Part shown: positions 34,867 through 35,229 of the stretch, piece after piece | Layout of the letters: the number at the start of each line of letters is the position of its first letter | Position numbering within the stretch: the stretch's first letter is position 1 | Sequence record: PQ352352.2 | Origin: Escherichia phage vB_EcoM_PTE-Eco15 | DNA length: 64,000 nucleotides | Direction: 5' to 3' (one strand) | The notes under the pieces: generated by a model | Databases searched by the model: none | What the model saw: the letters and a program-made list of their open reading frames with translations, nothing else | What the model was told of the DNA's origin: nothing | Translations under genes and position numbers: made by a program

Positions 34867-35229
34867 ATGAAAGCATATCAAATTCTTGAAGGCACACATA
34901 AAGGTACTATTTATTTTGAAGATGGTATTCAAGCACGAATTATTGTCTCTAAAACCTTTAAAGAGGACTCTTTTGTAGACCCAGAAATTTTCTATGGTTT
35001 GCATGCCCGTGAAATTGAAATTGAGCCACAGCCTACAGTTAAAATTGAAGGTGGTCAACACCTGAACGTTAACGTTCTGCGTCGTGAAACTCTGGAAGAT
35101 GCAGTTAAGCATCCGGAAAAATATCCGCAGCTGACCATCCGTGTATCCGGTTATGCAGTTCGCTTTAACTCTCTGACTCCGGAACAGCAGCGCGACGTTA
35201 TCGCTCGTACCTTTACTGAGAGTTTGTAA
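34867..35229 (+). CDS. GrcA/YfiD-like autonomous glycyl radical cofactor
   Basis: 120 aa; C-terminus ...[29 protein letters not shown] carries the glycyl-radical signature RVSGY; 3' half uses E. coli-like codons. Confidence 0.8.

Follow-up and report, generated by a model that had tools for sequence, protein, structure and literature searches.

A tract identical to Escherichia coli grcA within vs.6, the glycyl-radical cofactor gene of a T4-type phage

The window analysed here is a stretch of 64,000 nucleotides from Escherichia phage vB_EcoM_PTE-Eco15 (PQ352352.2), and one short gene in it poses a question of origin: how did a gene with an AT-rich, phage-like 5' half come to end in a radical domain that reads like that of its host? 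A preliminary description, made from the sequence, had answered with domain capture, i.e., a chimera whose radical domain came from an enterobacterial grcA or pflB. We asked what the gene is, where its 3' half came from, and whether its 5' half has a history of its own.

The ORF at 34867-35229 (plus strand) was present exactly as listed in the preliminary description and encodes a product of 120 amino acids. Its DNA is 99.4% identical to T4 vs.6. Two silent changes, CAG/CAA at codon 55 and GAG/GAA at codon 118, separate it from T4T, and the encoded protein matches T4T Vs.6 at 100% identity. Among the 756 phage records matched by megablast, the best was phage ECML-134 (99.7%), while T4, T2, and their relatives matched at 99.4%. 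A tblastn search of the window with the T4T proteins recovered vs.8, vs.7, vs.6, vs.5, vs.4, vs.3, regB, vs.1, and vs in the T4T order. PHROG 1209 covers the protein over its full length (1-120 of 121 positions, E 1.2e-62), and the N-terminal half alone matches it with an E value of 2.2e-15; the full-length match and the position in the vs/regB early-gene block place the gene in the T4 vs.6 orthologue group. Judged by sequence, the ORF is vs.6 (Y06I) of a T4-type phage, predicted to encode a 14-kDa stand-alone glycyl-radical protein. It is thus the same gene, with the same neighbours, as in the close relative T4, from which the window differs in upstream gene order. The features of the locus are as follows.

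34858..34861, plus strand: Shine-Dalgarno-like GAGG, 5 nt 5' of the ATG and overlapping the vs.7 TGA stop (34857-34859); function presumed from sequence and position
34867..35229, plus strand: vs.6 / Y06I CDS, autonomous glycyl-radical cofactor (GrcA homologue), from the ORF, T4 vs.6, PHROG 1209, Pfam, and 6OWR
34867..35044, plus strand: AT-rich 5' part of phage type, encoding residues 1-59 and ending with base 1 of codon 60; a GrcA N-terminal region that has diverged
35045..35219, plus strand: host-identical tract of 175 nt, Vs.6 residues 61-118 = GrcA 68-125, from the alignment to the 3' half of E. coli grcA
35149..35151, plus strand: GGT codon of Gly95, the predicted radical-bearing glycine in the motif RVSGYAV, from the translation and the alignment to YfiD and PFL chains
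35220..35229, plus strand: phage-type tail GAG AGT TTG (E. coli GAA AGC CTG), then TAA; all three codons synonymous in the alignment

The stop codon overlaps the ATG of vs.5 (TAATG, 35227-35231), whose ORF extends over 35229..35450. A scan for promoter and terminator consensus sequences around vs.6 gave counts no higher than in shuffled sequence.

The Pfam Gly_radical domain (PF01228) extends over Vs.6 residues 61-101 with a score of 66.8 bits (the cut-off being 22.2), and the best solved structure was that of E. coli YfiD/GrcA (PDB 6OWR, E 8.6e-42), to which the C-terminal domain of Vs.6 is identical in sequence. The preliminary description had considered the C-terminal ~60 residues, with their glycyl-radical motif, to be host-type, and rightly so: Vs.6 has the sequence of E. 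coli GrcA 68-127 throughout its residues 61-120, the motif RVSGY included, and in the alignment Gly95 of Vs.6 corresponds to Gly102 of GrcA and Gly734 of PflB. Like E. coli GrcA (YfiD; TIGR04365/IPR011140; 6OWR), Vs.6 is a small stand-alone protein, and it agrees with GrcA in its domain, its size (~14 kDa, no PFL barrel), and the homology of its N-terminal region; the two proteins also have in common a published PFL-rescue activity. The differences are that Vs.6 is seven residues shorter, that the 5' half of its gene is AT-rich, and that, because of its diverged N-terminal half, it stays below the equivalog cut-off of NCBIfam TIGR04365 (153.3 versus 170 bits, residues 20-120 aligning to model positions 25-126). 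Moreover, grcA of E. coli lies between ung and eamB, whereas vs.6 lies in a phage early-gene block, so the host regulation of grcA does not apply to it. The C-terminus of PflB (~697-759) has the same glycyl-radical domain fold with the motif RVSGYAVRF, and agrees with Vs.6 at 50 of 62 positions, the stop being counted along with 61 residues, but PflB is an enzyme of ~760 residues with a catalytic barrel and Cys418/Cys419, and Vs.6 lacks this 700-residue barrel. Against TIGR01255 (PflB), Vs.6 scored 88.9 bits, the cut-off being 994.2, and aligned to model positions 680-744 only. The "pyruvate formate-lyase" labels found on vs.6 records are misnomers. In public phage records the gene is variously called "pyruvate formate-lyase," "acetyltransferase-related protein," "hypothetical protein," or "GrcA." One database protein with a T4-type N-terminus, encoded on a 168-kb contig, bears the NCBI label E. 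coli GrcA; its source is probably a phage genome deposited under the name of the host.

The gene and its biochemical function are already known, and vs.6 is not a new kind of system. In the part of PMC8683613 that deals with spare parts for pyruvate formate-lyase (PFL), which cites Wagner 2001 (BBRC 285:456), T4 Y06I and E. coli YfiD are given as the two biochemically validated ones, restoring oxygen-cleaved PFL once PFL-AE installs the radical. The same paper describes YfiD residues 1-60 as disordered and promoting binding to cleaved PFL, residues 61-127 as the structured radical domain, and the radical role of PFL Gly734 and of the YfiD glycine. The host-identical tract in vs.6 corresponds almost exactly to this structured domain. 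Rescue of PFL by the Vs.6 of the window, which the preliminary description had suggested, has thus been established for T4 Y06I in the source just cited, and since the two proteins are 100% identical, the role would extend to the window gene. According to the mechanism published for T4 Y06I and E. coli YfiD/GrcA, the PFL of the host is cleaved by oxygen at its radical glycine, the small protein docks onto the cleaved enzyme, the C-terminal domain of the small protein takes the place of the lost segment, the host activase PFL-AE provides it with a new glycyl radical, and fermentative production of acetyl-CoA and formate resumes; Vs.6 would act likewise. For the N-terminal region, homology to GrcA is demonstrated below, and an equivalent PFL-binding function may be supposed. 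The phage may carry its own spare part because host gene expression stops after infection. An earlier comparative paper, from 2006, had guessed at a role in nucleotide metabolism.

The preliminary description had seen an AT-rich 5' half followed by a step to higher GC, and the composition bears this out. In 90-nt windows the GC content was 0.24-0.37 over 34790-35029, 0.44-0.52 over 35000-35239, and 0.32-0.39 downstream. The 5' half of vs.6 has a GC of 0.34 and a GC3 of 0.20, the 3' half 0.48 and 0.43, respectively, and within the tract 35045-35219 the GC rises to 0.49, a value reached by only 0.4% of the 175-nt windows in the 64 kb; the remaining windows of this kind lie over a tRNA cluster (25569-26927) or just downstream of it, to ~27270. 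That cluster comprises eight tRNA genes, as in T4 (Gln, Leu, Gly, Pro, Ser, Thr, one with a CAT anticodon, and Arg), the CAT-anticodon tRNA being called Met by ARAGORN. As to codon usage, CTG accounts for five of the six Leu codons in the 3' half versus a 4.9% share phage-wide (in the long ORFs of the window; P = 1.7e-6), and CCG for all three Pro codons versus a phage share of 15%. Of the three codons named as host-like in the preliminary description, these two held up, while CGT has no discriminating power, as it makes up 39% of the Arg codons of the phage itself.

At the nucleotide level the resemblance to the host is complete. Positions 35045-35219 of the window are identical to E. coli grcA over 175 of 175 nt without interruption; the span assigned to the host-like part by the preliminary description, 35050-35222, was off by only a few bases. 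The segment comprising gene positions 179-363 was matched, at 98.4%, in 5426 of 5426 complete E. coli genomes, and with the core alone as the query 5156 of the 5426 gave at least 99% identity, many of them 100%. The 5' half of vs.6 had a nucleotide match in none of the 5426, so the difference in identity between the two halves that the capture reading called for is indeed found. As a control, the 64-kb window was divided into three and each part compared with the E. coli genomes by megablast; the sole match was 35045-35233. Were the same 57 residues encoded in phage codon usage, the probability that all codons would match those of E. coli would be ~1e-30.

As to the donor, the preliminary description had left it at grcA or pflB. 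The 3' half of vs.6 is identical to E. coli grcA at 182 of 186 positions and to the last 186 nt of pflB at 146 of 186; pflB, at 78% nucleotide identity only, is ruled out, and the grcA part of the proposal stands. In a comparison with 80 bacterial grcA loci of species other than E. coli, the 186-nt 3' half was 97.8% identical to E. coli, 96.8% to another Escherichia, and ~90% to Citrobacter, the next genus. This resolves the putative donor as Escherichia grcA. The direction of transfer was judged from both sides. In E. coli grcA itself, both halves are at about the same distance from their counterparts in Citrobacter, Salmonella, and Enterobacter, and the tract has host composition, which together argue that the sequence is vertically inherited in E. 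coli and was copied by the phage. In Mosigviruses, the few differences from the E. coli tract are mostly G/C-to-A/T changes at third positions; these appear to be decay after the transfer and support the host-to-phage direction. That E. coli received the sequence from a phage, or that the identity arose through faulty assembly or contamination, is hardly conceivable: the E. coli sequence fits vertical descent in Enterobacteriaceae, and over 640 independent phage records have the tract, as does every one of the E. coli genomes.

The edges of the tract are sharp. With the Karamvirus gene and E. coli grcA as parents, the maximum chi-squared was 83 (p <= 5e-4), with a breakpoint at gene nt 177-186 (window 35043-35052), which gives statistical support to the earlier impression of a host-like 3' half. 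Informative sites favoured phage over host by 64 to 7 on the left of the breakpoint and by 1 to 41 on the right. The left junction lies just before GAAGG; the right one falls short of the stop by a few bases, and beyond this phage and host have unrelated sequences. The two halves also differ in their synonymous divergence (dS, 5' half first): T4 and JS09, which belong to different genera, stand at 0.50 and 0.12, T4 and Karamvirus at 0.67 and 1.95, and RB43 and Slopekvirus at 0.97 and saturation. At least 95% identity was found in 642 phage records for the core and in 480 for the 5' half, and a further 152 records had the 5' half at 80-90%. With a supported breakpoint, different closest relatives, and different synonymous divergence of its halves, vs.6 has the marks of a recent host-to-phage mosaic.

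These findings lead us to the following explanation, which we consider highly probable as a whole: an old, resident grcA homologue of the phage had its radical half overwritten from the host, and a separate replacement took place in Klebsiella phages. In the lineage of E. coli T-even phages, the part encoding the radical domain (35045-35219) would recently have been overwritten with the grcA sequence of the host chromosome, probably through homologous or homeologous recombination (gene conversion) during infection, and the tract would be bounded on both sides by the points where phage and host sequences cease to be alignable. T4 recombines with homologous DNA resident in the cell, and plasmid-phage recombination is used in T4 genetics. 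The old alleles are 73-84% identical to host grcA and retain exact runs of 14-20 nt, which makes homeologous exchange plausible there and nowhere else in the window. As the sequences read, a patch was replaced within a grcA homologue that the phage already possessed, and no chimera was created.

How many times this happened among T-even phages is a separate matter. A single conversion in an ancestral T-even phage, followed by spread from phage to phage among co-infecting genera, so that there was one event per host group, has a real, if somewhat less than even, chance of being correct. The phage-type AGT codon of the tail is common to all T-even relatives examined, the 5' junction is identical in Tequatro- and Mosigviruses, and the Mosigviruses have one CCA change in common as well as the phage-type tail. 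T-even phages recombine freely, and one conversion with subsequent spread accounts for the T-even data as well as repeated conversions do. Against it, the split between Tequatrovirus and Mosigvirus, as recorded in the 5' half (dS 0.50), considerably predates the 3' core (dS 0.12), so that some later homogenisation is needed anyway, its template being either the host or another phage. The tract is not simply following the host of isolation, since the E. coli-type tract is also carried by Tequatroviruses whose isolation host was Yersinia. Within the overwriting explanation, we put forward more tentatively that the strongly conserved radical domain keeps the 3' half recombinable, and that this half may be reset repeatedly to the grcA of the current host, E. 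coli for the T-evens and K. pneumoniae for the Jiaodaviruses, in an ongoing gene conversion from host to virulent phage that would match the spare part to the host's PFL and PFL-AE. The replacement may either have been selected for compatibility with the host enzymes or be a neutral consequence of homology.

The separate replacement was seen in Jiaodavirus, a Klebsiella phage. Its 3' half shows 96% identity with K. pneumoniae grcA and 88% with E. coli, including a perfect run of ~107 nt against the former that starts at the junction of T4, and its GC3 is 0.59 in the 3' half versus 0.24 in the 5' half. The Klebsiella phages also have the Klebsiella-type residues LLDAVEHP rather than LEDAVKHP. 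There are 22 differences in 186 positions between the 3' halves of E. coli and K. pneumoniae grcA, and the phages side with their respective hosts; this calls for at least two transfers, and the Jiaodaviruses would have acquired K. pneumoniae grcA sequence independently. The K. pneumoniae grcA sequence used here was taken from a chromosome record mislabelled as a plasmid in PLSDB. The PLSDB "plasmid" records CP125156.1, LR134122.1, and NZ_AP026896.1 are evidently whole or partial chromosomes, the mislabelled records including a 5.37-Mb K. pneumoniae and a 4.94-Mb A. caviae sequence. The grcA gene of K. aerogenes NCTC10006 is interrupted by a frameshift within a run of A, and its annotation reads as a truncated "pyruvate formate-lyase."

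Other lineages have 3' halves of a different kind. Those of Karamvirus, RB43/Margaery, Slopekvirus, and Aeromonas phage avDM2 are 74-86% identical to the best bacterial sequence, often with the amino acids of the host group, and they appear to be older and ameliorated. The 3' half of Karamvirus is at most 79% identical to any host, with a GC3 of 0.31. For Slopekvirus and RB43/Margaery the identity to the best bacterial sequence available was 82-86%, and their 3' halves may be either old or derived from unsampled donors. A recent transfer in avDM2 from A. caviae grcA was considered for its host-type amino acids and rejected at a nucleotide identity of 74% only. Likewise rejected as the donor of the Karamvirus C-terminus (LTKETLE...TFTKEM) was a group of GrcA-like proteins typified by P0048, with 72% nucleotide identity only and very AT-rich loci. 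Proteins of this kind are encoded on Logan contigs of 120-150 kb (L091-L093), whose 3.4-kb locus has a GC of 0.245; the gene at 1501-1881 encodes a 126-aa GrcA homologue with a bacterial-type N-terminus and adjoins a gene for an SNF2-family helicase. Its composition is fully ameliorated (GC 0.29-0.33), and the contigs may belong to a phage or to an AT-rich bacterium.

Much turns on the 5' half. On the chimera reading, a radical domain taken from host grcA or pflB was joined to an unrelated AT-rich phage N-terminal sequence, and one would be looking at a new gene; the sharp step in composition and identity at 35045 would fit, as would the fact that the N-terminal half of Vs.6 has no Pfam or NCBIfam match of its own. 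The N-terminal halves, however, are themselves homologous to bacterial GrcA. When the N-terminal 59 residues of seven phage proteins were compared with the N-terminal 66 of nine bacterial GrcA proteins, hhalign gave a probability of 95.4% (E 2e-8, 31% identity over 48 columns), and a single phage/bacterial pair of N-terminal halves gave a BLASTP E value of 1e-5. The N-terminal half of Vs.6 is ~31-36% identical to that of GrcA, and the database homologues include intermediate forms that bridge the phage and bacterial proteins. The 120-aa gene is found in a comparable neighbourhood in six genera of Straboviridae (Tequatro-, Mosig-, Jiaoda-, Karam-, Pseudoteven-, and Slopekvirus), and a 122-aa homologue occurs in a seventh, the Aeromonas Biquartavirus; a conserved vs.6 had been reported in six of six T4-like genomes (PMC1524935). 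The same 120-aa architecture is thus present in Karamvirus with its old, ameliorated 3' half, and in vs.6 the last codons are still of the phage type. Since, in addition, pflB matches at 78% only, the formation of a new chimera by domain capture is improbable, and this part of the preliminary description was not sustained. Between T4 and JS09 the 5' half shows purifying selection (pN 0.054, pS 0.36). We regard vs.6, on comparison of these sequences, as very probably an old resident grcA homologue of Straboviridae whose radical half was recently overwritten from the host, and not as a new fusion.

A single capture of the whole gene from E. coli, with a 5' half that diverged fast and a 3' half held by selection, would draw on the extreme conservation of the radical domain (pN 0.00-0.03 among enterobacterial grcA genes, ~0.10 at most for Karamvirus), but selection at the protein level cannot preserve ~45 synonymous sites while the 5' half saturates against the host, and the 5' half is common to distant phage genera, which renders such a capture very unlikely.

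The nearest parallel to the overwriting of vs.6 is found in cyanophages. Zeidner et al. in 2005 and Sullivan et al. in 2006 reportedly described intragenic exchange between host and phage in psbA of T4-like cyanophages. Like vs.6, cyanophage psbA is an auxiliary metabolic gene with host-type patches and a compositional shift, which imply recombination between phage and host. Unlike psbA, vs.6 belongs to a phage of enteric hosts, its tract departs at no position from the host gene of today and has its junctions at the limits of homology, and it is carried by a classical hydroxymethylcytosine phage that destroys host DNA. In the searchable literature we found no statement of the nucleotide-level identity, the host-templated patch, or the parallel Klebsiella event; older T4 papers may mention them.

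The locus offers a precise and statistically supported case of a lytic-phage gene in which the functional half repeats the present-day host sequence base for base, the sole such stretch in 64 kb of a T4-type genome, with a parallel event in another host species and another phage genus. It suggests that T4-like phages, though they destroy host DNA, may occasionally copy the host chromosome where enough similarity survives, and it makes vs.6 a concrete locus at which the rate and the genetic requirements of such copying could be measured. Should the repeated resetting of the 3' half prove true, vs.6 would serve as a naturally occurring assay in which templating by the host chromosome could be measured, in a phage that breaks down the DNA of its host. 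Two annotation errors are also brought to light, namely the "pyruvate formate-lyase" and "hypothetical protein" labels and the 2006 guess at nucleotide metabolism.

GrcA-like genes are common beyond Straboviridae as well, the core matching 1507 phage records. The carriers outside the family include T5-like phages, the jumbo phages SE_PL and Serratia BF, and Morganella phage MP1, the T5-like and jumbo phage versions having only 72-77% nucleotide identity to E. coli grcA.

Two observations concern the region upstream of vs.6. Relative to T4T, vs.8 (33882-34533) is apparently split by a frameshift, residues 1-36 lying at 33882-33989 and residues 34-216 at 33979-34530 in another frame; the ORF listing of this region has one ORF of 33 aa and one of 195 aa. 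The split may be a real pseudogene, a case of recoding, or a sequencing error. Farther upstream the order in the window is denV (32494-32904), an ORF of 86 aa (32914-33174), ipIII (33238-33813), and vs.8, whereas T4T has ipIII, ipII, and denV here. The 86-aa ORF, at the position of ipII, has no tblastn similarity to T4 ipII, and the region 32494-33816 looks like a variable internal-protein cassette.
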